Source: Eubacteriales bacterium (GTDB lineage: Bacteria > Bacillota > Clostridia > Oscillospirales > CAG-272). Taken from it: a stretch of 64,000 nt of DNA. The translations under genes and the position numbers were made by a program. Positions 19,769 through 39,596 of the stretch are shown here, in pieces; the first letter of the stretch is position 1, and every line of letters begins with the position of its first letter. The DNA lies in NCBI GenBank assembly GCA_045122255.1, contig JBGVHJ010000063.1, forward strand, positions 25,610-89,609, in the 5' to 3' direction. The notes beneath the pieces were generated by a model, which saw only the letters and a list, made by a program, of their open reading frames with translations, was not told the origin of the DNA and did no database searches.

Positions 19769-19880
19769 CTACGGCTTTGCCGTAGATTTCACGCTCTCTT
19801 AGAGAGCATTTCACGTTGCAAAGCAACATTTCACATTTTGCGAAGCAAAATATTTCACCGCAAAAGCCACGGGCTTTTGC
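19769..19880 (-). repeat. Array of 5 perfect hairpins separated by 4 copies of GTGAAAT (minus-strand reading) between ricA and mutS
   Basis: Plus strand: ctacggc-ttt-gccgtag ATTTCAC gctctc-tta-gagagc ATTTCAC gttgc-aaa-gcaac ATTTCAC attttgc-gaa-gcaaaat ATTTCAC (c)gcaaaagcc-acg-ggcttttgc. Confidence 0.9.
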
Positions 19881-20261
19881 TTAGTGGCAGCCGCCGCAGG
19901 TGGAGCAATCGTGCGTGCAAGGCGTCTTACCCGTTGCATTGAACATAATGGTATTGTTCACGGTCTCCATAAGCTCGTTTACCGCGGTCTGCGCTTCTTC
20001 AAGCTCCATAAAAATGGGATCAGTGGTGATCTCGGCATAGATCTCATCGATCCTGTCCTGAATTCTGGTCAGCGCATCGGTATCGATGTCCGCGCTGTCG
20101 CCCATAGCGGTAAGCGCCTGCTGCTGAATGCCGTATTCCATCATAAGGTTATTTATCTTTTCGCTCTTTTCGTAGGCTTCCTTTGCCGCCTCCATGCGGA
20201 TCATTCTTTCGTCGGCCTTGATCGCCTTTCCAAGCTCTGCTGCAAGTGAATAAATGCTCAT
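19881..20261 (-). CDS. ricA: YlbF/YmcA-family protein (RicA-like) with a C-terminal 4-Cys tail
   Basis: 126 aa and helical. Its position between miaB (ymcB) and mutS matches B. subtilis ymcB-ymcA synteny. It ends in PCTHDCSTCGGCH. Confidence 0.7.
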   Translation of the reverse strand: MSIYSLAAELGKAIKADERMIRMEAAKEAYEKSEKINNLMMEYGIQQQALTAMGDSADIDTDALTRIQDRIDEIYAEITTDPIFMELEEAQTAVNELMETVNNTIMFNATGKTPCTHDCSTCGGCH

Positions 20262-29967: not shown

Positions 29968-29996
29968 TTGACATTAACGTAATTAAGTGTTATACT
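29968..29996 (+). promoter_or_regulatory. Promoter upstream of repeat-element copy 1 and tmcAL
   Basis: TTGACA (29968-29973), 17 nt, TGtTATACT (-10 at 29991-29996). Confidence 0.55.
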
Positions 29997-30033: not shown

Positions 30034-30221
30034 AGTGATATTGTTGCTTCGCAACAGTGGTATTTCCCTTGCGGGAAGTGATATTGTTCAGCTTTGCTGA
30101 ACAGTGATATTCTATTCGCCACTTTAACTTGCGTAGCAAATACCACTCGGTGTAAGCCGAATATCACTGCGAAGCAATACCACTCGCCGCAGGCGAATAG
30201 AACTGCGCACCTTCGGTGCGC
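30034..30221. repeat. Composite motif-hairpin element, copy 1: 4 x AGTGRTATT (forward), then 5 x AATAYCACT-like (reverse), each separated by a perfect mini-hairpin
   Basis: Read directly from the sequence. The unit list is in the findings. Confidence 0.9.
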
Positions 30222-30237
30222 CAGAAAGGAGAGCAAT

Positions 30238-31446
30238 ATGAAAACCGTTGGCATCGTATGCGAATACAACCCTTTTCACACGGGGCATGCGCGGCAGATA
30301 GATATTCTGCGCAAGAGTGGCGCCGAGGTGATAATATGCGCTATGAGCGGCAATTTTTCAGAGCGCGGAGAGCTTACAGTTGCAGACAAATACACTCGCG
30401 CAGAGGCGGCTGTAAGATGCGGCGCGGATATAGTAGTTGAGCTTCCCTTTCCCTATTCTTCGCTTTCGGCAGAAGGATTCTGCTCTGCGGGCGTCCACAT
30501 TCTCTCGTCTCTTGGTTGCGATACTCTTTCATTTGGAAGCGAGAGCGCAGACGTGGCGCTTCTTCGTCGCGCGGCTGATATAGCTTCCTCTCCCGAATTC
30601 GTCTCGGATTATGCCGAGATCTGCAAAAATCAAGGCTCGGCAAGGGCTTATTTCGACCTGCTTTCCGAAAAGCTTGGCGAGGATGCAAGGCTTCTTTCAA
30701 ACGATATTTTGGGCATATCCTACGTTGCCGCCATCAAGCATCAAGGCTCCGTGATGGAGATATTCCCCATAAGTCGCGAGGGAGCGGCTTATAAGGAAAC
30801 CGAGCTCGGCGGCCCTTATCCCAGCGCGACCGCCATCAGAAAGGCGACCAATGAATCGCAGAAGGGCTTTTTCGCTATCAGCTGTGACAATATCCCCACC
30901 CCTGCCCTCGAAGCCTTGAAAAGGGCTCAAAATGACGGTCTCGCGCCGGTATTTACCGACAGTATCGGATCGGATATCCTCAGCTTTTTCAAGCTTATGT
31001 CACCCGACGAGATAATTTCTCGCGCTACTAAAAGATCGGGCGGCGGAGATTCGGTCTGCTGCGACGGATGCGGTATTGTAGAAAGAATATGCAACAGTGC
31101 AAAAGCATCAAAAGATCTCGGCGAAATGCTGAAGGCATCATACAATTCAAGATATCCCGATGCAAGGATCAACCGCGTAATTCTCTTCTCCATGCTTGGC
31201 GTATCGGATGCTTTTGAAAAATCGCTACCCGAATACACCCAGCTTTTAGGAGCAAGCGACGCGGGACGAAAATACCTCTCGAATATCCGCAAGTCTTCCG
31301 CTTTCCCCATAGTCACAAAGCCTGCCGACGCTCCCGAAGCAACGGCAACGGGTATCCTCCATCTTTCCGACTCACTTTACGCATCCGCTATGCCAAAGGA
31401 CGTAAATTTCGATTATTTTCTCAAAAAACACCCATATATGGGCTGA
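30238..31446 (+). CDS. tmcAL: tRNA(Met) cytidine acetate ligase (YlbM/TmcAL family nucleotidyltransferase)
   Basis: MKTVGIVCEYNPFHTGHARQI matches the YlbM N-terminus, and SD AAAGGAGAG lies at 30225-30233. The 48 codons upstream in the track ORF merely translate the repeat array. Confidence 0.85.
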   Translation: MKTVGIVCEYNPFHTGHARQIDILRKSGAEVIICAMSGNFSERGELTVADKYTRAEAAVRCGADIVVELPFPYSSLSAEGFCSAGVHILSSLGCDTLSFGSESADVALLRRAADIASSPEFVSDYAEICKNQGSARAYFDLLSEKLGEDARLLSNDILGISYVAAIKHQGSVMEIFPISREGAAYKETELGGPYPSATAIRKATNESQKGFFAISCDNIPTPALEALKRAQNDGLAPVFTDSIGSDILSFFKLMSPDEIISRATKRSGGGDSVCCDGCGIVERICNSAKASKDLGEMLKASYNSRYPDARINRVILFSMLGVSDAFEKSLPEYTQLLGASDAGRKYLSNIRKSSAFPIVTKPADAPEATATGILHLSDSLYASAMPKDVNFDYFLKKHPYMG

Positions 31447-31482
31447 AATTGTAAATTATAAGAAAACTTTAACAATTTACTG

Positions 31483-31511
31483 TTGACTTATACTTTTTTA
31501 TATGATATAAT
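31483..31511 (+). promoter_or_regulatory. Promoter of the 97-aa ORF
   Basis: TTGACT, 17 nt, TGaTATAAT. Confidence 0.6.
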
Positions 31512-31576
31512 TTGTTATTGAATAATTTGCAAAAAACCACAGAAAGGATTTCGAGCAATCGAAAAGGTGATATATA

Positions 31577-31870
31577 ATGGCTGAAACTCGCAATATGGTC
31601 AAGGGCGATATCATTTATTACAAGAACAAGCCCCTGGTTCGTGAAAAAGATACTATATGCTACGGTGACTTCACCGAAAAGTGCGTTCTTATATTTGAGA
31701 TCATGTCTTACGTGGAAGAAGAAGGAGCAAAGGTGCCCGGCAAGATCTTCATTCAGGTGATCGACTCCGAAAGCGGAAAGATTCTCAAGCAGGCTGATAA
31801 GGAAGGTATGTTTGAGGCATTTAACTACGGTATTTTCTGGTACGAAAAGTTCCTTACCGAAAACAACTGA
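31577..31870 (+). CDS. Small hypothetical protein (97 aa)
   Basis: It has a strong promoter (31483-31511), SD AAGGTGAT and a downstream terminator. No motif recognised. Confidence 0.5.
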   Translation: MAETRNMVKGDIIYYKNKPLVREKDTICYGDFTEKCVLIFEIMSYVEEEGAKVPGKIFIQVIDSESGKILKQADKEGMFEAFNYGIFWYEKFLTENN

Positions 31871-31892
31871 TCGGCAAGCTTATCGAAAATAC

Positions 31893-31925
31893 AAAAAGGC
31901 AAGCGCGGCTTGCCTTTTTTGTTTT
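31893..31925. terminator. Bidirectional terminator
   Basis: AAAAAGGCAAGC-GCG-GCTTGCCTTTTTT. Confidence 0.8.
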
Positions 31926-31951
31926 TTATTGGATCAAAGTATATTTTTTAA

Positions 31952-32455
31952 TCAACAATTTTCAATTGAATAATATATGCACCTATGCTCTTTACCTCTG
32001 TATTCGATCACGTCGGATCTATTCATCAGCTTCATACCGCACTTCTGCATCACGCGTTTGCTTGCAATATTTTCTTCAAACGCGCCGCATATGACCTTGG
32101 AAAATCCCTTTTCAAAGAGATACCCGATAGCTCCCTTCATCGCCTCGGTGCAATATCCTTTATTTTGATATTCAGGGGAGATGACGTAGCCCATTTCCAC
32201 GCAGCCATCCACGATCTCGGTATCGTTCATAAAACCGATAAGCTCATCGCCAAGGCTTATCGCTCCAACGTATCGGTCATCAGCATTAGACAGTCGGGCA
32301 AATGCAGAAAAAAGCTTCTCCGCCGCTTCCACATTCTCAAAATCGGGGATCATATAGGTCTTTTTAATGCTTTCATCGTAAAGCATTTCAAGCATTTTTT
32401 CTTTGTCGGCGTCACAAAACGGACGGACGCTCAGTCTTTCGGTTTTGAATTGCAT
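31952..32455 (-). CDS. GNAT-family N-acetyltransferase
   Basis: 167 aa, RimJ/RimL-like, with ...YQNKGYCTEAMKGAIGYLF... as the acetyl-CoA binding region. Confidence 0.8.
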   Translation of the reverse strand: MQFKTERLSVRPFCDADKEKMLEMLYDESIKKTYMIPDFENVEAAEKLFSAFARLSNADDRYVGAISLGDELIGFMNDTEIVDGCVEMGYVISPEYQNKGYCTEAMKGAIGYLFEKGFSKVICGAFEENIASKRVMQKCGMKLMNRSDVIEYRGKEHRCIYYSIENC

Positions 32456-32457
32456 AA

Positions 32458-33315
32458 TTATTTTTTTACAAGCTCCACTAAAACTATTTCTCTTGGGTTA
32501 TTGAAGCGAATCGGAAAACTGCTGTTACCAACGCCGCGGCTCACTATCATCACGCTTCCCTCTCGCTCATACATTCCGCCGTCGTATTCGGGGAAAAGGC
32601 CGTAGCTTGGGGCATAGAGACCGCCGAGGAACGGAATTTGAAACTGACCGCCGTGTAGGTGTCCGCTGAGCACAAGATCAAAGCCGCAGGTGGCATACTG
32701 ATAAAAATCGCGGGGGCGGTGAGCCAAAAGCACCGAAAATGCGGTTTTATCGCCCTTTAAGGCTATAAGATCGTCATTTGAAGGCTGATAACCGAAATTC
32801 TGATCTCCAACACCGGCAATGGTTATGTATTCTCCGTTTTTTTCAAATAAAACGGCATTATTTTCAAGCACCGTGACACCTGCCGCCGTCAGCTTATCGC
32901 AAAAATCGGCATAGTCGTCCTGCGACAAAACCGACTCGTGATTTCCGCTGACGTAATAGGTCGGCGCGATCAACGCGGCTTTTTCTGCAAACTCTACCGC
33001 AACCGAAATATCGGTTCGGGTTCGGTCGATAAGGTCGCCTGTTATGACGATAATATCGGGATCCGTTTTTTTCAGTTTTGCAATAAGACGAGAATTGCCA
33101 TCCCCAAGCTCATCGTTATGCAGATCCGATACCTGCGCTATGCGAAATCCATCGAAGGCATCGGGAAGCTTTTCGCTCTCTATTCGGTATTCGCTGACAG
33201 TTACCGCAAAATTGCCCCATAGCATCCAAGCGGTGAAGACAATGGCGGCAAATAATAACACGGCAAATGCCAAAGAAATTGTTATCGCTAATATCCTTAC
33301 TGTTTTTTTATTCAT
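32458..33315 (-). CDS. Membrane-anchored metallophosphoesterase
   Basis: An N-terminal TM segment, then DLHND, GDLIDR, GNHE and SGHLHGGQ motifs. Confidence 0.85.
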   Translation of the reverse strand: MNKKTVRILAITISLAFAVLLFAAIVFTAWMLWGNFAVTVSEYRIESEKLPDAFDGFRIAQVSDLHNDELGDGNSRLIAKLKKTDPDIIVITGDLIDRTRTDISVAVEFAEKAALIAPTYYVSGNHESVLSQDDYADFCDKLTAAGVTVLENNAVLFEKNGEYITIAGVGDQNFGYQPSNDDLIALKGDKTAFSVLLAHRPRDFYQYATCGFDLVLSGHLHGGQFQIPFLGGLYAPSYGLFPEYDGGMYEREGSVMIVSRGVGNSSFPIRFNNPREIVLVELVKK

Positions 33316-33321
33316 TTCAAA

Positions 33322-34308
33322 TTAAATCATATCATTCCCAACGGGAGTATAGAAAAGCTCCGAAAACTCTGCGGCGGTCTTGGACTTAGGAAGCGCCCAC
33401 ATGACCTTAGCGACAACTGTTTCGGTAGTCATATCGTATGCCTCGGGGAGCTCATATTTCTGCTTGATGCGAAGTCCGACCTGGTAAACTCCCATATCGC
33501 TTCCCTCGTGAGGAACCTGAGTAGTTATAACTATTCTGACTCCCTTTTCAATAAGCCTTTCGATCTTCTCCACGAACTCGTCGTTGTCATAGTAAGGCAA
33601 ACCGCCCACACCGAAGCTCTCGATTATGACCGCGTGATATCTGTCGGCGATAAAGTCAAAAATATCTGCGCTCATACCCGGGATAAGCTTGACAACGATG
33701 ACCGAGGGGTCGATCTCGTCACAGAAAACAGGCTCTCCCGTGATGTTTTCACGGATATAATACTTAACCGAGCCGCGGATAAAGCCGATCTCGGGATAAT
33801 CTATGCTGGAGAAGGCATTGAAGCTCTTTGTCCTCGTCTTTCTCGCTCTGGTAGCGGCAATTATCTTATCGCCAAAAACGATATGTACACCGCAGGCAGA
33901 ATCGTCGGAGGCATACATAAACGCGTCGGTGAGGTTTTCTCTCGCATCGGTATCGCGCTTCTCTATCGGTATCTGCGCGCCCGTCAGCACGATAGGCTTT
34001 CGGCTGTTCTGTATAAGATAGTGCAGCATTGCCGCAGCATATGCCATAGTATCGGTTCCGTGAGTTATAACGAATCCGTCGTATTCGTCGTATACCTTGC
34101 GGATATATCTCGCCACCTCGAGCCAATACTCGGGGCGCATATTGGTGCTGTCAAGATTGTAAAGCTGAACGGTGGAAACGTGGCAGATGCTTCTGACCTC
34201 GGGAACGTGCGAGAGCAGCTGCTCCGATGCCAGGGCGGGCACAAGACCGTTTTCACTTTCTGCGGAGGCGATAGTGCCTCCCGTTGTAATTAAAAGAATG
34301 TGCTTCAT
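33322..34308 (-). CDS. ansA: Type I L-asparaginase
   Basis: ILLITTGGTIAS with the catalytic Thr motif, and HGTDTM. Confidence 0.9.
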   Translation of the reverse strand: MKHILLITTGGTIASAESENGLVPALASEQLLSHVPEVRSICHVSTVQLYNLDSTNMRPEYWLEVARYIRKVYDEYDGFVITHGTDTMAYAAAMLHYLIQNSRKPIVLTGAQIPIEKRDTDARENLTDAFMYASDDSACGVHIVFGDKIIAATRARKTRTKSFNAFSSIDYPEIGFIRGSVKYYIRENITGEPVFCDEIDPSVIVVKLIPGMSADIFDFIADRYHAVIIESFGVGGLPYYDNDEFVEKIERLIEKGVRIVITTQVPHEGSDMGVYQVGLRIKQKYELPEAYDMTTETVVAKVMWALPKSKTAAEFSELFYTPVGNDMI

Positions 34309-34316
34309 AAATTACC

Positions 34317-34820
34317 TTATTTTTCAAAATTTATTCTGATTATTTTTCTTGCAGGAAAGAACTCTCCAAGCTCAATTCCAACGATTTTAGCGCAAATCGG
34401 TTCTCTTATCTCGGGTAAAAGTGCCTTCGCCCTTCTCACCTCATCCTCATTGCCGCAAAATACCGTTGCATGAGGAACCCACTCAAATCCGTTTGCATAA
34501 TCGCATTCAAAGCTTTTGCGCAACTCAAGCAGCTCCTCGGGCACTGTGGGCTCAAGGAAAAGCACTCTGTCCGAAAATGTTTTATAGGCGACGAGCTGAA
34601 CGTCAAAGCTATGAGAATCTGCCGCGACGCGCTTGATCTTCTCTACTACTTCATCCACCGCATCCGTGGGATAGCTTCCCAGCGTCAGATGAAACGGTAT
34701 GCCCATGGTTTGCGTTCCTTCGCCTACCCTTTCAATGAGCGTCGCCTGCATTTTTGCAAGCAATTTTTGTGTTTCATCATCAAAGACCGCCATAACGGTC
34801 AAGAATTTTTTGTTTTCCAT
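34317..34820 (-). CDS. 2H-phosphoesterase / 2'-5' RNA ligase (LigT-like) family protein
   Basis: Two HxT/S motifs: FHLTLG and PHATVF. Confidence 0.7.
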   Translation of the reverse strand: MENKKFLTVMAVFDDETQKLLAKMQATLIERVGEGTQTMGIPFHLTLGSYPTDAVDEVVEKIKRVAADSHSFDVQLVAYKTFSDRVLFLEPTVPEELLELRKSFECDYANGFEWVPHATVFCGNEDEVRRAKALLPEIREPICAKIVGIELGEFFPARKIIRINFEK

Positions 34821-34839
34821 TTAGTTTACCTGATGTTAT

Positions 34840-35006
34840 GTAAGTCGAGTCGCTTTTGAGGAGCAACGCGGCAAAGTGCAAAATTTCCAATGACTTGACC
34901 GACGAAATTTTGTGCGAGGCAAGGCGCACCGGAAAAAGCAAGACGAAGGCTTACTTACGTAAGTCGAGTCGCTTTTGAGGAGCAACGCGGCATCGCGCAA
35001 AATTTC
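34840..35006. repeat. Direct repeat: identical 34-mers at 34840-34873 and 34959-34992, each followed 4 nt later by GCAAAATTTC
   Basis: GTAAGTCGAGTCGCTTTTGAGGAGCAACGCGGCA occurs twice with a 119-nt period. GCAAAATTTC is at 34878-34887 and 34997-35006. An inverted partner GAAATTTTG is at 34904-34912. Confidence 0.9.
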
Positions 35007-35011
35007 TAAGG

Positions 35012-35728
35012 TCAAATGCCGAAGCCGCCGTCTACGCCTATCACCTGTGCAGTTATGAACGATGCCTTTTCACTTGCAAGGAAGTATACGAGCTCGGCAA
35101 CCTCAGAGGGGTCTCCGATTCGGTAAAGAGGCGTCTCCTCGCAAAGCTCCGCCATGGTATCGTCGTCATAGCAAGCGTTCATATCGGTATCGATAACGCC
35201 GGGTTCGACGCAATTGACTCTTATTCCCGACCGCCCAAGCTCCTTGGCAAGAGAGAGAGTAAGACCGCGAAGCCCTGCCTTGCTTGCCGAGTATGCCGAC
35301 TCGCAGGACGCGCCGCATCTGCCCCAGACCGAGCCTATATTGATTATAGATCCGCTCTGCTGTCTTACCATATCCGCCGTTGCCGAGCGGCTCATATAAA
35401 AGGCGCTTGAAAGGTTGGTGTTCATCACCTTCATCCAGTGCTCGTTTGTCATATCGGTTATCAGCTCGCTTTCGCTGATGCCCGCGTTGTTGATAAGTAC
35501 GTCAACTCCGCCGAGATAGCCTACCGCTTGCTCATAAGCCCAAGCCGCCTCCTCGGGGTCGGAAATATCTGCTTTTATGGGGAATGCTCCCGTTTCGTCG
35601 GCACATTCCTCTGCCGCCTCGTCATTGAAACGGTATATAAACGCAACCGCATAGCCGTTCTCGGCAAAAAGCTCAACGCATGCGCGACCGATGCCGCGCG
35701 AGCCGCCTGTAACTATTACTTTTTTCAT
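35012..35728 (-). CDS. SDR-family oxidoreductase (FabG-like)
   Basis: TGGSRGIG cofactor motif and YSASK catalytic motif. Confidence 0.85.
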   Translation of the reverse strand: MKKVIVTGGSRGIGRACVELFAENGYAVAFIYRFNDEAAEECADETGAFPIKADISDPEEAAWAYEQAVGYLGGVDVLINNAGISESELITDMTNEHWMKVMNTNLSSAFYMSRSATADMVRQQSGSIINIGSVWGRCGASCESAYSASKAGLRGLTLSLAKELGRSGIRVNCVEPGVIDTDMNACYDDDTMAELCEETPLYRIGDPSEVAELVYFLASEKASFITAQVIGVDGGFGI

Positions 35729-35753
35729 AAATACATCCTTATATTTTTTTGAA

Positions 35754-37502
35754 TTATTCTTCGATTACCGATTTTCTTGATAAAATTGAGCTTATGATCT
35801 CGGGCGGGAATTTGAACTTTCTTTCATAGGTCAAAAGACCGTTTTTCTCCTGCTCCACGTCGGTGAGCTGAGTATAGCAATACGCGAAAATGTCTTTGTT
35901 ATCAAGGAGAACGTCGGTAAGCCCCTTGAGACGCTCCAAGAACTCCTCTTCGGTCTTCACGCTTACACCGTAGCCCCAAGCCTTGGTATCCTCTCCGACT
36001 ACCCACTTGATTCCGCCGTACTCGCTGACGAACACGGGCCTTCTTGTATCGTACCAGATACGGTCAGGAGTTTTTCTTTTTATCTGACAGTTAACGATTC
36101 CCTCGCCGATGCGAGAATAATTGTCTCTGAATTTTTCGGGGTCCTGCTCGTAGTCGTGAACGTCGTGAACGTCGCTTCGGCAGGGGTAAGATCCGCTATT
36201 GGTCACGATGGGACGGGTGGGATCGATGGCTCTCGTCACTTCAAATATCATATTGATAAAATCGTTGCTCTGTCTTCTGCCCTCCTTATCCCAGGTCTCG
36301 TTAAAGGGACACCAACCGATGATCGAGGGGTGCGACATATCTCTCTTGACCTCCTCGATCCACTCGGGCAGGAAATGGTAGATGCTCATAGGATCGGTAT
36401 GGTCGAGTCCCCAGTTGCCCGTCTCGTCGAAGACCATATAACCGAGTCTGTCGGCATGATATAGGAATCGGGGCTCAAATACCTTCTGATGAAGTCTCGC
36501 GCCGTTAAATCCAAGCTTCATTGAAGCCTCTATATCAAATATCAACGCCTCGTCTGAGGGCGCGGTATAGATTCCGTCGGGATAGAAGCCCTGATCGAGC
36601 ACAAAGCGACCGAAAACGCGTCTGCCGTTTACGTAAAGTCCTTCTTTCGTAAGTCTCACGTTGCGGAGACCGAAATAGCCCTTCAGGGTATCCTTGATCT
36701 CTCCGTCCTTGACCAACTCAAACACTACGTCATAAAGGTTGCCCTGACCTAAGTCCCAAAGGTGCTCCTCCGAGAGCTTTATCGCAAGAGTGCTTCTTCG
36801 GTCAAGAATTTTCGTCTCGCCAAATCCCACCTCTCTGCCGTCGAAATAAACGGTCGCCTTGAGTATGGCTCCAAGAGCCTGCTCGGTGCTTTCCGCAGAC
36901 AAAATGACTGTGGTATTTGCAACGTCAGCTATCGCCTCGTATCTCTCGATATGCGCGGCATCCACCGCCTCAAGCCATACCGTCTGCCAGATACCCGTGG
37001 TTCTGGTATACATGCAGCCGAAGGATTTCACAGCGGGGCTCTGCTTTCCGCTGACCTGACGAGGTGAGCGTGTGTCGTCCTCGGCATAAACGGTGATATA
37101 GTTACCTTCCTTTTTCAATTCAGGGGTAATATCAAAGCAGAAGGGTGTGTAACCGCCCCTGTGAGTACCGACTCCCCTTCCGTTAACAAAAACCTGAGTT
37201 TTATAATCACAGGCGCCGATATGGAGCAATATTCTCTTGCCCTGCCAAGCCTCGGGGATCTCAATATCACGTCTGTACCACACCGCATTCATAAAATCGG
37301 TATGCGCAACGCCTGAAAGTCGGCTTTCGGGGCAGTAAGGCACGGTTATCTTGCCGTCAAGGCTATCTCTTGTCGCGTAATGCTTTTCAATGCCAACCAA
37401 GACGTTATCTATTTCAAAATCCCACTCACCGTTAAGGCTTATCCAATTTTCTCTCATCGCATCGGGACGTGGATGCTCGAGTCTCAAATTAACATTCTCC
37501 AT
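35754..37502 (-). CDS. Glycoside hydrolase family 2 enzyme (beta-galactosidase/glucuronidase-like)
   Basis: WCPFNETW (acid/base region) and VFVSEYGG (nucleophile region), with a sugar-binding N-terminus. No signal peptide. Confidence 0.8.
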   Translation of the reverse strand: MENVNLRLEHPRPDAMRENWISLNGEWDFEIDNVLVGIEKHYATRDSLDGKITVPYCPESRLSGVAHTDFMNAVWYRRDIEIPEAWQGKRILLHIGACDYKTQVFVNGRGVGTHRGGYTPFCFDITPELKKEGNYITVYAEDDTRSPRQVSGKQSPAVKSFGCMYTRTTGIWQTVWLEAVDAAHIERYEAIADVANTTVILSAESTEQALGAILKATVYFDGREVGFGETKILDRRSTLAIKLSEEHLWDLGQGNLYDVVFELVKDGEIKDTLKGYFGLRNVRLTKEGLYVNGRRVFGRFVLDQGFYPDGIYTAPSDEALIFDIEASMKLGFNGARLHQKVFEPRFLYHADRLGYMVFDETGNWGLDHTDPMSIYHFLPEWIEEVKRDMSHPSIIGWCPFNETWDKEGRRQSNDFINMIFEVTRAIDPTRPIVTNSGSYPCRSDVHDVHDYEQDPEKFRDNYSRIGEGIVNCQIKRKTPDRIWYDTRRPVFVSEYGGIKWVVGEDTKAWGYGVSVKTEEEFLERLKGLTDVLLDNKDIFAYCYTQLTDVEQEKNGLLTYERKFKFPPEIISSILSRKSVIEE

Positions 37503-37613
37503 AAAATCCGCCTTTCTGCGCTCAAGCGCTCTGAGTTAATTAAATTATAACATATTAATATATAAAATACAATATTTTTTTCACTTTATTGCGATATTTT
37601 TTCTTCAAAGCTC

Positions 37614-37642
37614 TTGCAAAAAGGTAAAATTTGTTGTATAAT
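37614..37642 (+). promoter_or_regulatory. rhaA promoter candidate
   Basis: TTGCAA (37614-37619), 17 nt, TATAAT (37637-37642). Confidence 0.5.
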
Positions 37643-37713
37643 ATAATTTGGTATACGATGTATGCCCCTAAAAAGCAAAAAAATTAAAAGTACATAATAC
37701 ACAGGAGGTCATT

Positions 37714-38964
37714 ATGGCAAACGCAAGATACGAGTCCGCTAAGGAAATCTACGCAAGATACGGCATTGATACCGAAGCGGCTATCGCAAAGCTTTCCGAC
37801 GTTCGCATTTGTATGCACTGCTGGCAGGCAGACGACGTAAGAGGTTTCGAGGGTACTGGTACTCTCTCCGGCGGTATTCAGACTACCGGTAACTACCCCG
37901 GCGGCGCTCGCAACCCCGACGAGGTTTTCGCAGACCTTGACAAGGCTCTCTCCCTCATTCCCGGAACCCACAAGATCAACGTTCACGCTAACTACGCTAT
38001 CGCTGAGGATGGCGAGGTTATCGACCGTGACACCATTGAGCCCCGTCACTTCAAGAGATGGGTAGAGTTCGCAAAGGCTCATAACTGCGGTCTCGATTTC
38101 AACCCCACCTTCTTCTCTCACCCCAAGGCAGGCGGTCTTACCCTTTCCAGCCCCGACGATGAGATCAGAGCTTTCTGGGTAAAGCACGGTATCGCTTGTA
38201 TCCGCATCTCCGAGTACTTCGCTCGTGAGACCGGTTATCCCTGCGTAATGAACATCTGGACCGGCGACGGTACAAAGGATATCCCCGGCGACAGAATGGG
38301 TCCCCGTCAGAGATATGCTGACTCCATCGACCAGATCATCGGCTGCGGCTACGACAAGAGCTTGGTTTACGTAACCGTTGAGTCCAAGGTATTCGGTATC
38401 GGTGTTGAGGCTTACACCGTAGGTAGTGCTGAGTTCTCTCTCGCATACGCTATGACCAGAGGTATCACTCCTCTTATGGATAACGGTCACTATCATCCTA
38501 CCGAGGTAGTTTCCGATAAGATCCCCGCGCTTCTCGTCTTCTCCGACAAGATCGCGCTTCACATCACCCGTCCTATCCGTTGGGACTCCGACCACGTTGT
38601 TGCATACGACGATGAGACCCGCGAGATGATGAAGGAGGTCGTTCGTTGCGACGCTCTTGACAGAGTATTCCTCGCAACCGACTACTTCGACGCTTCTATC
38701 AACCGTGTAGCGGCTCTCGTTATCGGTATGAGAAACGTTCAGAAGGCTCTTCTTAACGCTCTTCTTACTCCCAATGCTGAGATCAAGGGCTATCAGGACA
38801 AGGGCGACTTCACCAAGATGCTAATGCTCCAGGAAGAGATCAAGACCCTTCCCATGGGCGACGTATGGAACGAATTCTGCGAAAGAAACGGCGTTTGCGG
38901 CTGCTCTTGCTGGTTCAAGGAGATCGAAAAGTACGAGGCTGAGGTTCTCTCCAAGAGAGTTTAA
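37714..38964 (+). CDS. rhaA: L-rhamnose isomerase
   Basis: 416 aa. The N-terminus ...ICMHCWQADDVRGFE... and overall length are typical of RhaA. Confidence 0.9.
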   Translation: MANARYESAKEIYARYGIDTEAAIAKLSDVRICMHCWQADDVRGFEGTGTLSGGIQTTGNYPGGARNPDEVFADLDKALSLIPGTHKINVHANYAIAEDGEVIDRDTIEPRHFKRWVEFAKAHNCGLDFNPTFFSHPKAGGLTLSSPDDEIRAFWVKHGIACIRISEYFARETGYPCVMNIWTGDGTKDIPGDRMGPRQRYADSIDQIIGCGYDKSLVYVTVESKVFGIGVEAYTVGSAEFSLAYAMTRGITPLMDNGHYHPTEVVSDKIPALLVFSDKIALHITRPIRWDSDHVVAYDDETREMMKEVVRCDALDRVFLATDYFDASINRVAALVIGMRNVQKALLNALLTPNAEIKGYQDKGDFTKMLMLQEEIKTLPMGDVWNEFCERNGVCGCSCWFKEIEKYEAEVLSKRV

Positions 38965-38977
38965 TTCTGAATCACCC

Positions 38978-39028
38978 AAAAAATCGGCTGCCGATGCCCA
39001 ACTTCTCATAAGGAAGTTGGGCAGTTTT
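38978..39028. terminator. rhaA terminator region (two adjacent hairpins, usable from either strand)
   Basis: ATCGG-CTG-CCGAT (38983-38995) is preceded by A6. GCCCAACTTC-TCATAAG-GAAGTTGGGC (38996-39022) is followed by AGTTTTA. Confidence 0.7.
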
Positions 39029-39193
39029 ATTCGCCTGCGGCGAGTTCTATTGCTTCGCAGTGATATTCGTCTTGCGACGAGTGGTATTCGCTACGCGAGT
39101 TTAGGAGGCGAATAAAATATCACTAAAGCCGTAGGCTTTAATATCACTGTTGCGTAAGCGGCAATATCACTCCGACGAAGTCGGAATATAACT
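39027..39193. repeat. Composite motif-hairpin element, copy 2 (opposite orientation to copy 1)
   Basis: cgcc-tgc-ggcg AGTTCTATT gc-ttc-gc AGTGATATT cgtc-ttgc-gacg AGTGGTATT cgc-tac-gcg AGTTTAGGA GGCGAATAA AATATCACT aaagcc-gta-ggcttt AATATCACT gttgcgtaagcggc(aa) (AA)TATCACT ccgac-gaa-gtcgg AATATAACT. Confidence 0.9.
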
Positions 39194-39221
39194 TGACTAA
39201 TTGTCGATTTTGATGTATAAT
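39193..39221 (+). promoter_or_regulatory. Promoter of the four-helix-bundle gene; the -35 abuts the last repeat unit
   Basis: TTGACT (39193-39198), 17 nt, TATAAT (39216-39221). Confidence 0.55.
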
Positions 39222-39239: not shown

Positions 39240-39596
39240 ATGTCAAACAGCGTTATGAGAGATAAAGCAAAGGATTTTGCAAAGAATATTGTCTTCCTCT
39301 GCCGTAATATGAAGGCAGAGCATAAAGAAACGGTGCTTATAAATCAACTGCTGCGTTCAGGCACTTCCATTGGTGCGAACATTCACGAAGCACAATATGC
39401 ACAAGGTACAAAAGACTTTATATCTAAACTTGAAATTGCTCAGAAGGAATGCTATGAAACAGAATATTGGCTTGAGCTTTTATTTGAAACCGGTTGTATT
39501 GAAGAATGTATTTACAAGTCTATTCAGAACGATTGCGGAGCAATTCGCAGAATGTTGATTGCTTCCTTGAACACAATTAAATCAAAACAAGAATAG
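39240..39596 (+). CDS. Four-helix-bundle protein (23S rRNA intervening-sequence protein / Avd-like family)
   Basis: MSNSVMRDKAKDFAKNIVFLCRNM...LLRSGTSIGANIHEAQ...YWLELL is the family signature as I recall it. ATG 39240 follows AGAGGTGAT. Confidence 0.75.
   Translation: MSNSVMRDKAKDFAKNIVFLCRNMKAEHKETVLINQLLRSGTSIGANIHEAQYAQGTKDFISKLEIAQKECYETEYWLELLFETGCIEECIYKSIQNDCGAIRRMLIASLNTIKSKQE

Follow-up and report, generated by a model that had tools for sequence, protein, structure and literature searches.

In enterobacteria, the repetitive extragenic palindromes and bacterial interspersed mosaic elements (REP/BIME) form dispersed extragenic mosaics of palindromes joined by short conserved linkers, located after the 3' ends of transcription units. 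The BOX, RUP, bcr1 and Correia repeats are modular intergenic elements of ~100–200 bp with strong folds, which are sometimes co-transcribed and can supply promoters or terminators. In RNAs of the CsrB/RsmZ type, a repeated short motif is presented by a series of variable hairpins. Gut-1 (Rfam RF01706), the family to which the elements considered here belong, was introduced among 104 motifs by Weinberg et al. 2010 and described solely as a human-gut metagenome motif (PMC2864571); in a literature search, Gut-1 or RF01706 was found mentioned only in that 2010 paper. We analyzed a 64,000-nucleotide stretch of a Eubacteriales bacterium genome (GCA_045122255.1, contig JBGVHJ010000063.1, positions 25,610 to 89,609; hereafter the window), in which an initial sequence-only reading by a model had singled out two related intergenic loci. 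Each locus is a ~170-nt dyad of two halves, A and B, which together with a flanking hairpin (P5) makes up a ~190-base intergenic element.

These elements are members of a known orphan family and thus not new in kind: the segment singled out at each locus is domain B of a bipartite, sub-threshold member of Gut-1. Against the Rfam Gut-1 model, half A scores 45.4 bits at locus 1 (+, E = 8e-8) and 36.5 bits at locus 2 (−), and half B scores 44.1 bits (−) at locus 1, where it was taken with 30192–30205, and 44.8 bits (+) at locus 2, i.e., the two halves of each locus match Gut-1 on opposite strands. All these scores lie below the RF01706 gathering score of 50 bits, with E = 8e-8 to 1e-5 in the E-value scan, a small shortfall that arises because the AGUGAUAUU linker stands in for GUGAAAU; with 50.8 bits, the reverse complement of half B from one homologue (L237) does pass this threshold. 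Alignment to the model consensus and covariation counts recovered the Gut-1 architecture of four conserved GUGAWAU linkers and three covarying hairpins. Further, the seed rows BAAZ01000095.1 and BAAZ01025322.1 are of the same subtype (..UUAUAUUCGCC..GGCGAG(C/U)GAUAUUG..GGCGAAUAUAAUAUCAC..): the modeled part of these rows corresponds to half B in reverse complement and immediately follows a predicted terminator or tRNA, and their unmodeled flank shows the AAUAUCAC array, which is half A read in reverse complement. Because the seed already holds this subtype but models only the reverse complement of half B, the loci are best described as sub-threshold Gut-1 members met by a half-element model. 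What is new is the extended two-part architecture, a switch-like pair of conserved helices, the placement at boundaries and the missing strand signal.

A scan of species-representative genomes recovered at least 120 loci with three AGTGRTATT linkers, nearly all in metagenome-assembled genomes (MAGs) of gut or rumen Clostridia (Acutalibacteraceae, Oscillospiraceae, Eubacteriales and Ruminococcus); 70 complete dyads were parsed among the matches listed, and the structure alignment comprises 68 sequences. Read 5' to 3', the element opens with half A, formed by four AGTGRTATT linkers (M1–M4) and three hairpins, followed by the center NTATTCGCC and a degenerate linker that ends in AACT in 62 of the 70 copies. 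Half B then displays four small hairpins (hB0–hB3) between complementary AATAYMACT linkers (R1–R3), followed by the last linker AATANAACT (R4), which is abutted by P5; a hairpin at the P5 position is present in 63/70 homologues. In RNA letters, domain A carries the AGUGAUAUU linkers and domain B the AAUAYMACU linkers, and between them lies the center NUAUUCGCC, which pairs with GGCGAAUAN at the 3' end and thereby closes domain B (in DNA letters, GGCGAATAN). Among the loci listed, the linker strand patterns are ++++---- (24), +++---- (22) and ++++--- (13), with the reverse order never encountered. The linker itself is palindromic if G·U is allowed, with the middle base as its sole freely variable position: the half-A linkers are otherwise 97–100% conserved. 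Additionally, the last base of a linker pairs with the first base of the next one across the intervening hairpin (T-A 411, G-C 5, A-T 1).

Covariation across the homologues supports this architecture strongly. The named structure is 93.6% paired in the 68 aligned homologues as against 81.5% in shuffles (0/500 reaching it), and the covariation score is 0.278 versus 0.078 for shuffled sequences and at most 0.035 with slid partners. Thus, upon structural alignment of more copies, the stem differences are not random. All seven hairpins are nearly entirely Watson–Crick across the 70 homologues despite 14–54 distinct sequences per slot (48, 54 and 53 in the three half-A slots; 23, 41, 14 and 28 in hB0, hB1, hB2 and hB3, respectively), which bears out the proposal of the sequence-only reading that selection acts on pairing and not on stem sequence. 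Within the window, AGTGRTATT occurs 13 times versus 0.81 expected (none of 100 shuffles reached 13), 12 of these inside the two loci, and a profile search found only two dyads of this type. Folding of the 89-nt segments (30112–30200 and 39027–39115) gave z = −2.9 to −3.2, with the closing helix forming part of the minimum-free-energy structure. The half-B loops are GNA or GNRA with C-G closure in 68% of cases, with C-GNA-G triloops outnumbering GNRA tetraloops 152 to 38, and hB2 is the heptamer GCGAAGC or GCGTAGC in about 54–56 of 70 copies.

The sequence-only reading had given the first and last blocks of the 89-nt segment of locus 1 (CTATTCGCC and GGCGAATAG) correctly as sequences and had missed that they are a pair; they form a covarying 9-bp long-range helix, hereafter helix H. 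It had likewise listed as a plain block what is in fact the degenerate linker (ACTTTAACT at locus 1). All nine pairs of helix H form in 54/70 copies, and its first pair is A-U in 27, U-A in 20, C-G in 18 and unpaired in 3 of the 68 aligned copies. Helix H has a rival for the GGCG strand in the local hairpin CGCC-loop-GGCG, which is likewise maintained, with 97.8% pairing. Since helix H and this last local hairpin compete for one strand, the element has two alternative folds. A metagenome scan showed that the GTGAAAT type also occurs in two-part form, with helix H represented by GAAATAAATCC:GGATTTATTTC and AAATCCACCC:GGGTGGATTT; in each of these GUGAAAU-type relatives, the 3' part of the 5' strand of helix H is also the 5' arm of the first local hairpin. 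As these relatives keep both pairings with different sequences, both alternatives are conserved across three sequence versions, which is the strongest structural result of our analysis.

Two further interactions between the halves were considered and rejected. Pairing of half-A with half-B linkers, yielding a rod of perfect four-way junctions, has the appeal that the linkers are exact complements and that the hairpins abut them without a spacer, and the folding program uses parts of it. However, half-B variants are uncompensated in half A (e.g., position 4 of M2 and position 6 of R3 are G:C in 39 and G:A in 31 copies), partners permuted among loci give equal mean complementarity in most registers, and helix H excludes this pairing topologically. 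Half-A loops are often complements of half-B loops; kissing between them was rejected, with 31 complementary loop pairs against 36 expected.

The comparison of the two window loci that had drawn attention to them was reproduced in its particulars. An ungapped comparison of 30112–30200 (+) with the reverse complement of 39027–39115 gave the same 76 identical positions of 89, and the differences inside stems are paired as claimed: seven of the 13 sit in predicted pairs, all seven preserve pairing and no pair is broken. From locus 1 to locus 2, C→T at position 1 with G→A at position 89 compensate each other in the outermost pair of helix H, half-B hairpin 1 goes from TGC/GCA to CGC/GCG (again compensatory), and half-B hairpin 2 shows a compensatory G-C to T-A change and a T·G to C-G change, with its loop going from GTAA to GCAA. 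The remaining differences are three in ACTTTAACT/TCCTAAACT and two in AATACCACT/AATAGAACT. Half A is also as had been described, with the four linkers (starting at 30034, 30056, 30077 and 30103 on the plus strand and at 39193, 39171, 39148 and 39124 on the minus strand) and the number of hairpins kept, both first hairpins 13 nt long with a TTC loop (gttgcttcgcaac vs ccgacttcgtcgg), and every stem different.

The split into a conserved and a hypervariable half had been considered unusual. Half A is indeed the more variable one family-wide (mean pairwise identity 0.57 in the half-A hairpins vs 0.72 in the non-linker sequence of half B), but this is a property of the family with plain causes and not a peculiarity of the two loci: half B is better conserved because its stems are only 2–4 bp long, one of them shares its 3' arm with helix H and another is the fixed heptamer GCGAAGC/GCGTAGC. 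The two window copies are 40% identical in the half-A hairpins and 81% in half-B non-linker sequence, and L172, a homologue from another species, shares 88% identity with locus 2 in half A. This identifies the two loci as old paralogues, one in each of two subfamilies (center CTATT vs TTATT), as opposed to recent duplicates. Hairpin modules recur in different slots, and most copies within one MAG differ in hairpin sequence. We also encountered a near-identical pair (L148, 2277–2449 and 4995–5145), in which the identity stops exactly at R4 and the flanks differ, a tandem duplication with two copies 413 nt apart (L153), and, in the seed rows of Weinberg et al. from BAAZ01000130.1, four copies at 240-nt spacing on one contig. 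The coordinates of the features in the window are collected in Table 1.

Table 1. Gut-1 elements of the window and adjoining signals (strand signs refer to the window; H, long-range helix; RBS, ribosome-binding site)
Feature	Position	Strand	Remarks
Locus 1, whole element	30034-30221	+	
Locus 2, whole element	39193-38996	-	
Promoter-like site TTGACA-17-TATACT, with TG	29968..29996	+	11/12 matches; directed at locus 1 and, beyond it, the HIGH_NTase1/TmcAL-family gene (ATG 30238)
Locus 1, half A	30034..30111	+	Linkers M1-M4: AGTGATATT, AGTGGTATT, AGTGATATT, AGTGATATT; hairpins gttgc-ttc-gcaac, tccc-ttgc-ggga, gttcagc-ttt-gctgaac
Locus 1, center C, 5' strand of H	30112..30120	+	CTATTCGCC; partner 30192-30200
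Locus 1, half B interior	30121..30191	+	Degenerate linker ACTTTAACT; tgc-gta-gca; AATACCACT; cggt-gtaa-gccg; AATATCACT; mini-hairpin GCGAAGC; AATACCACT; CGCC-GCA (5' arm and loop of last hairpin)
Locus 1, GGCG and linker R4	30192..30204	+	GGCG is the 3' arm of the last hairpin; R4 is AATAGAACT
Locus 1, 3' strand of H	30192-30200	+	GGCGAATAG; GGCG alternatively pairs with local CGCC, 30185-30188
Locus 1, flanking hairpin P5	30205..30221	+	gcgcacc-ttc-ggtgcgc; abuts R4; then RBS and ATG 30238
Locus 2, half A	39116..39193	-	Linkers AGTTATATT, then three times AGTGATATT; hairpins ccgac-ttc-gtcgg, gccgcttacgcaac, aaagcc-tac-ggcttt
Locus 2, center and half B	39023..39115	-	TTATTCGCC, TCCTAAACT, cgc-gta-gcg, AATACCACT, cgtc-gcaa-gacg, AATATCACT, GCGAAGC, AATAGAACT, cgcc-gca-ggcg, AATAAAACT
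H at both loci			Locus 1, CTATTCGCC:GGCGAATAG; locus 2, TTATTCGCC:GGCGAATAA
Locus 2, P5 and small hairpin	38977..39022	-	P5 gcccaacttcc-ttat-gagaagttgggc; then hairpin ATCGGCAGCCGAT and T6
Promoter-like site TTGACT-17-TATAAT	39193-39221	+	For the 23S_rRNA_IVP-family gene (ATG 39243); -35 abuts last locus 2 linker
Promoter-like site TTGACA-18-TATTAT	39246-39217	-	Reads into locus 2
Canonical single Gut-1	19781..19860	-	Four GTGAAAT linkers and three hairpins; Rfam 63.8 bits

We then examined the genomic setting of the homologues. The neighbors are diverse housekeeping genes, and among the 780 open reading frames of the loci listed (at most 8 kb each), we found no recurrent partner gene besides the 23S_rRNA_IVP family and no transposase, REP-associated tyrosine transposase (RAYT) or Y1 gene. 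The 23S_rRNA_IVP-family (four-helix-bundle) gene recurs at about six loci (39243–39596 (+) in the window; also L125, L126, L166, L168, L172 and L232), divergent from half A and with its −35 box TTGACT overlapping the last base of the last linker. The element shows a fixed polarity relative to its neighbors: the B end faces the 3' end of a gene in 45/57 cases, i.e., the gene downstream of the B end is convergent, often ~50 nt away with P5 in between, and the A end faces the 5' end of a gene in 37/55. In 14 of the 70 copies, the dyad lies with its B end, and always this end, 31–39 nt from the 3' end of a tRNA gene, with nine different tRNA genes represented. The tRNA-adjoining dyads (L128, L131, L139, L143, L146, L153, L154, L156, L159, L179, L197, L199 and L228) display a conserved GAAAAA..TTTTTC bidirectional terminator hairpin between the tRNA and half B, and L220 and L133 retain at the B end a T-arm-like 'gaactggtc', a putative remnant, with no tRNA gene. 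The A end is where promoter-like sites concentrate, pointing both ways, and hardly any lie at the B end; the promoter scans cannot decide between inward and outward sites at the A end because their −10 boxes are mirror images at equal distance. For the same reason, only one of the two divergent promoters at locus 2 may be real.

Two lineages of copies have a more elaborate setting. In subgroup A, a bidirectional terminator is followed by the dyad, a −35/−10 promoter, a AGGCGGTGA Shine–Dalgarno (SD) sequence and the ATG of unrelated small genes, 53–55 nt from M1, which gives the impression of a single portable unit from terminator to SD. In L131, L143, L154, L146 (−) and L220 (two copies), the conserved promoter TTGCNN-17-TGcTATAMT and the unusual SD AGGCGGTGA lie on the opposite strand beyond M1, and the downstream genes of this subgroup encode membrane proteins or lipoproteins of 117, 187, 118, 94 and 184 aa. 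Subfamily C (L141–L237) carries upstream of M1 a conserved region of ~190 nt (..gtccttatcggagaa..gggcatagccc..gcatttgttaaacaaatgc..long hairpin cagaagagagag/ctctctcttctg) that recurs in different genomic contexts and belongs to no Rfam family in our Rfam scan. Its copies sit between P5 and this long hairpin, which looks like a bidirectional terminator because an A-run and a T-run flank it, with no room for a promoter of their own.

At locus 2, P5 is followed on the plus strand by GTTTTATT, terminator-like for rhaA (ending at 38964), and the hairpin is terminator-like on both strands. Beyond the other side of locus 1, the promoter scan found no minus-strand promoter within 800 nt. The two dyads of the window are mutually inverted and bracket an 8.8-kb block (30205–39022) with the tmcAL-family gene, six minus-strand genes (including those for a glycoside hydrolase and an asparaginase) and rhaA; an exact look-up of the TmcAL-family protein for sister strains yielded no match. 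The canonical single Gut-1 of the window lies between a YlbF/YmcA-family gene (19882–20150, minus) and mutS, co-oriented with both, and opens with a hairpin right after the stop codon; no promoter for mutS was found. YlbF and YmcA are members of the RNase Y 'Y-complex' in B. subtilis, and their family's presence beside this copy may be a coincidence. In single GUGAAAU-type copies from metagenomes (L300, L305, L348 and L376), GCGCGC-TTAC-GCGCGC likewise comes right after the stop codon, and the last hairpin is followed by GTGAGCGCG.., echoing a distal copy of the first hairpin's arm, and a terminator.

The element is essentially absent from viral, plasmid and phage records. PLSDB yielded no match, the two-linker pattern in viral contigs gave noise only, and one true dyad was found in 178 viral loci, namely a full dyad (L042, ~1290–1490) on one 4.2-kb IMG/VR contig. 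A half-B match (80% over 102 nt) is also present in MT835815.1 (5074–5174), an unannotated 17-kb record from human feces labeled 'Bacteriophage sp.'. Both may be misassigned bacterial fragments. A mobile-element reading was accordingly rejected, there being no recurrent protein or transposase in the loci listed and no association with phages or plasmids.

The sequence-only reading had argued for a folded RNA or single-stranded DNA (ssDNA). The folding is indeed under selection, but the choice between the two cannot be narrowed from sequence, and the strand signals conflict. G·U and A·C are equally rare, at ~1% each of ~2000 stem pairs among the homologues, and P5 shows the same parity (G·U 9, A·C 11); both strands look as if they are constrained to fold. 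The strand reading from A to B (plus at locus 1) is favored by the strong promoter-like site that reads across locus 1 toward the TmcAL-family gene, by the terminator-like sites that come after P5 in 36/61 homologues versus 14/61 at the other end, by the C-G-closed GNA/GNRA loops of half B and by the first non-Watson–Crick pairs of half B (G·U 12, A·C 6). The opposite strand, that of the Rfam orientation, is favored by helix H (G·U 13, A·C 4), by a lower folding energy in 47/70 copies, by flanking genes that are both co-oriented with it in 27 cases and opposed in 6, and by the single GUGAAAU-type copies, which start after a stop codon and end in a hairpin and a T-run. With G·U and A·C equally rare and the other signals in disagreement, neither strand is singled out as the folding one, and we set aside strand assignment from G·U versus A·C counts and two-strand folding energies as contradictory.

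Our leading interpretation, with a probability of roughly 40%, is of a folded single strand, most likely RNA, with a cis-acting role where transcription units border on one another. It would be made as part of a leader (locus 1, plus strand) or of a 3' extension, or when transcription runs through from either neighbor, and the array of hairpins and fixed linkers would be a module for stability, processing or insulation that some factor recognizes; through the competition of helix H with the local CGCC-loop-GGCG hairpin, it may switch between two folds. Consistent with this, locus 1 lies between a strong plus-strand promoter and the tmcAL-family start codon, and the canonical Gut-1 of the window is flanked by two genes of its own orientation. 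Both strands present AGUGAUAUU-type units first and both look constrained, as would fit a device for transcription from either side. The linkers, with a G followed by an AU-rich stretch a few bases before a helix, could by analogy be entry sites for RNase Y, which reportedly prefers cutting after G (PMC4608709) and is reported to be positioned by a downstream helix (PMC5449607); the weak RNase Y consensus in B. subtilis (PMC11780869) speaks against this lead. Several observations weigh against the cis-acting RNA more generally. The rarity of G·U, equal to that of A·C, is unusual for an RNA folding from one strand, and the A-to-B and Rfam strands are each favored by several signals. The 2-bp GCGAAGC/GCGTAGC hairpin is weak as RNA and very stable as DNA (PMC13037366). 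Furthermore, the strict conservation of the 9-mers and the exact complementarity between the halves are not explained by a purely structural cis role, and no partner factor was identified.

The same observations leave some room for a function at the DNA level, as a repeated extragenic element analogous to REP/BIME, whose hairpins would form in ssDNA of both strands (on the lagging-strand template or by supercoil extrusion) and serve as a protein-binding or topological site downstream of terminators and upstream of promoters, or as a non-autonomous mobile repeat. We regard this as a serious, though less likely, alternative. GCGNAGC and GCGNNAGC mini-hairpins are far more stable as DNA than as RNA and are found at ssDNA priming and promoter sites (PMC13037366), and the half-B hairpins resemble them in sequence, with the fourfold excess of C-GNA-G triloops over GNRA tetraloops and the prevalence of the GCGNAGC heptamer both pointing to DNA-stable motifs. 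The parity of G·U and A·C in hairpins and P5 alike, the presence of several copies per genome (including the near-identical pair with different flanks, the tandem copies and the modules in other slots), the position outside primary transcription units (in subgroup A with a strong terminator on one side and a promoter on the other, in subfamily C with a terminator-like hairpin on each side) and the occurrence of the subgroup A unit before different genes are all in line with it. However, stems of 2–6 bp are too short for self-extrusion; the copies within a genome are mostly divergent, unlike those of active miniature inverted-repeat transposable elements (MITEs), with no terminal duplication seen; and neither a transposase or RAYT nor a recurrent protein emerged from the loci listed. 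Moreover, linkers pair across hairpins only with G·U (UAUU:AGUG), an RNA-type feature seen in both linker classes, and the opposite orientation of the window copies 9 kb apart argues against a strict polarity with replication.

An independent trans-acting small RNA (sRNA), the type assigned to Gut-1 by Rfam ('Gene; sRNA'), would titrate an RNA-binding protein through its linkers in the manner of CsrB/RsmZ, with the complementary second half as a built-in competitor. The near-invariance of the half-A linkers, the bracketing of the locus 2 minus strand by a promoter-like site and a hairpin with T6, the sites with at least 10/12 matches that read into half A in 10/61 homologues and into half B in none, and the strong terminators directly after R4 in subgroup A speak for such a gene. 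It is nevertheless unlikely: the inward promoters at locus 2 and its relatives mirror the neighbor's outward promoter, with the −35 box overlapping the neighbor's start codon, neither space nor a signal for a dedicated promoter is present in subfamily C and subgroup A, the element is antisense to both neighbors in 27 cases and sense in 6, the many dispersed copies carry different hairpins, and no candidate binding protein was found. A gene-specific leader (riboswitch-like or an attenuator) for the tmcAL-family gene is suggested by the position of locus 1 between a strong promoter and the gene's RBS and by the two mutually exclusive pairings, helix H and the local hairpin. The diversity of contexts largely refutes it and leaves it very improbable: the 70 homologues have unrelated neighbors, with only the divergent 23S_rRNA_IVP gene recurring, genes downstream are mostly convergent, the RBS is not covered by P5, and the close relatives of locus 1 (L157 and L222) are not followed by a tmcAL-family gene. 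Finally, two inverted copies 9 kb apart that are 85% identical over 89 nt might suggest a recent duplication with random drift, which the sequence-only reading had named as what would overturn its view, or else chance palindromes. This is refuted by the low identity in half A, with each copy closer to relatives in other species, by the at least 120 homologous loci elsewhere, by covariation far above the shuffled and slid controls, and by the 13 motifs where 0.81 are expected.

A bolder reading, which we hold to be doubtful, sees Gut-1 elements as a widespread class of two-part, dyad-organized boundary modules of gut Clostridia that must fold on both strands and are not sRNA genes. In such a module, the units of the array would come in one order, the AGUGAUAUU-type ones first and never last, whichever side the transcription or the exposure of a strand starts from, and the array would toggle between a domain closed by helix H and the local hairpin. 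In some lineages, it would form part of a portable terminator–element–promoter–SD unit placed before different genes. Its linkers could be where an endoribonuclease such as RNase Y enters, or else the C-GNA-G mini-hairpins could be recognition sites in ssDNA; either possibility would, if true, amount to an intergenic insulator or processing cassette of a kind new to bacteria.

Irrespective of function, the observation is real and beyond chance, and nothing in it overturns expectations. Gut-1, a one-sentence orphan in Rfam since 2010, proves to be widespread in genomes of gut and rumen Clostridia, and many of its members are only half of a larger element with a complementary second array, a covarying long-range helix in competition with a local hairpin, and P5 as an integral part. 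These elements are found in a fixed polarity where one transcription unit gives way to another, adjoining terminators, promoters and the ends of tRNA operons, and lack the usual strand signal of an RNA, the tolerance of G·U. The result provides testable alternatives (a cis-acting RNA boundary module, a DNA-level element or a free sRNA) for an element that is abundant and conserved in major gut commensals, and better models for annotation. Even if the element were a REP-like repeat of Clostridia, its recognition would be useful in that it stops such loci from being annotated as riboswitches or sRNA genes.

Among the known systems, REP/BIME are likewise extragenic, lie where transcription units end, whether the genes are convergent or in tandem, and occur in inverted arrangements. 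In contrast to REP/BIME, where the palindromes are conserved and the linker types few, here the linkers are invariant and the palindromes vary with pairing kept, as illustrated by the 48–54 distinct sequences per half-A slot in 70 copies; the host phylum differs as well, and no RAYT-like gene was seen in the loci listed. The BOX, RUP, bcr1 and Correia repeats differ in being near-identical copies with terminal inverted repeats and target duplications, whereas the hairpins of Gut-1 copies mostly differ; near-identical pairs as expected of MITEs are rare (L148 and L153), and inspection by eye showed no target duplication. The CsrB/RsmZ type similarly presents a repeated short conserved motif on otherwise variable hairpins, but the Gut-1 motif has no GGA and no known partner protein, and its second half carries the complement of the motif. 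The DNA mini-hairpins GCGNAGC and GCGNNAGC (Hirao; PMC13037366) are known from ssDNA phage and plasmid priming sites and N4 promoters and not from chromosomal arrays; in common with them, hB2 is the heptamer itself, and the other half-B hairpins are C-G closed with GNA/GNNA loops (e.g., CGGCGTAAGCCG). The published Gut-1 model, of ~77 nt, is without the second complementary array, the long-range helix, P5 and the pairing of positions 9 and 1 across hairpins, and its description says 'human gut, no sequenced organism' and gives no function. With it, the elements described here share the four GUGAWAU-type linkers, the three covarying hairpins, the human and animal gut Clostridia as hosts, the position after terminators and the first hairpin UCGCC..GGCGA, the seed containing this very GUGAUAUU subtype.

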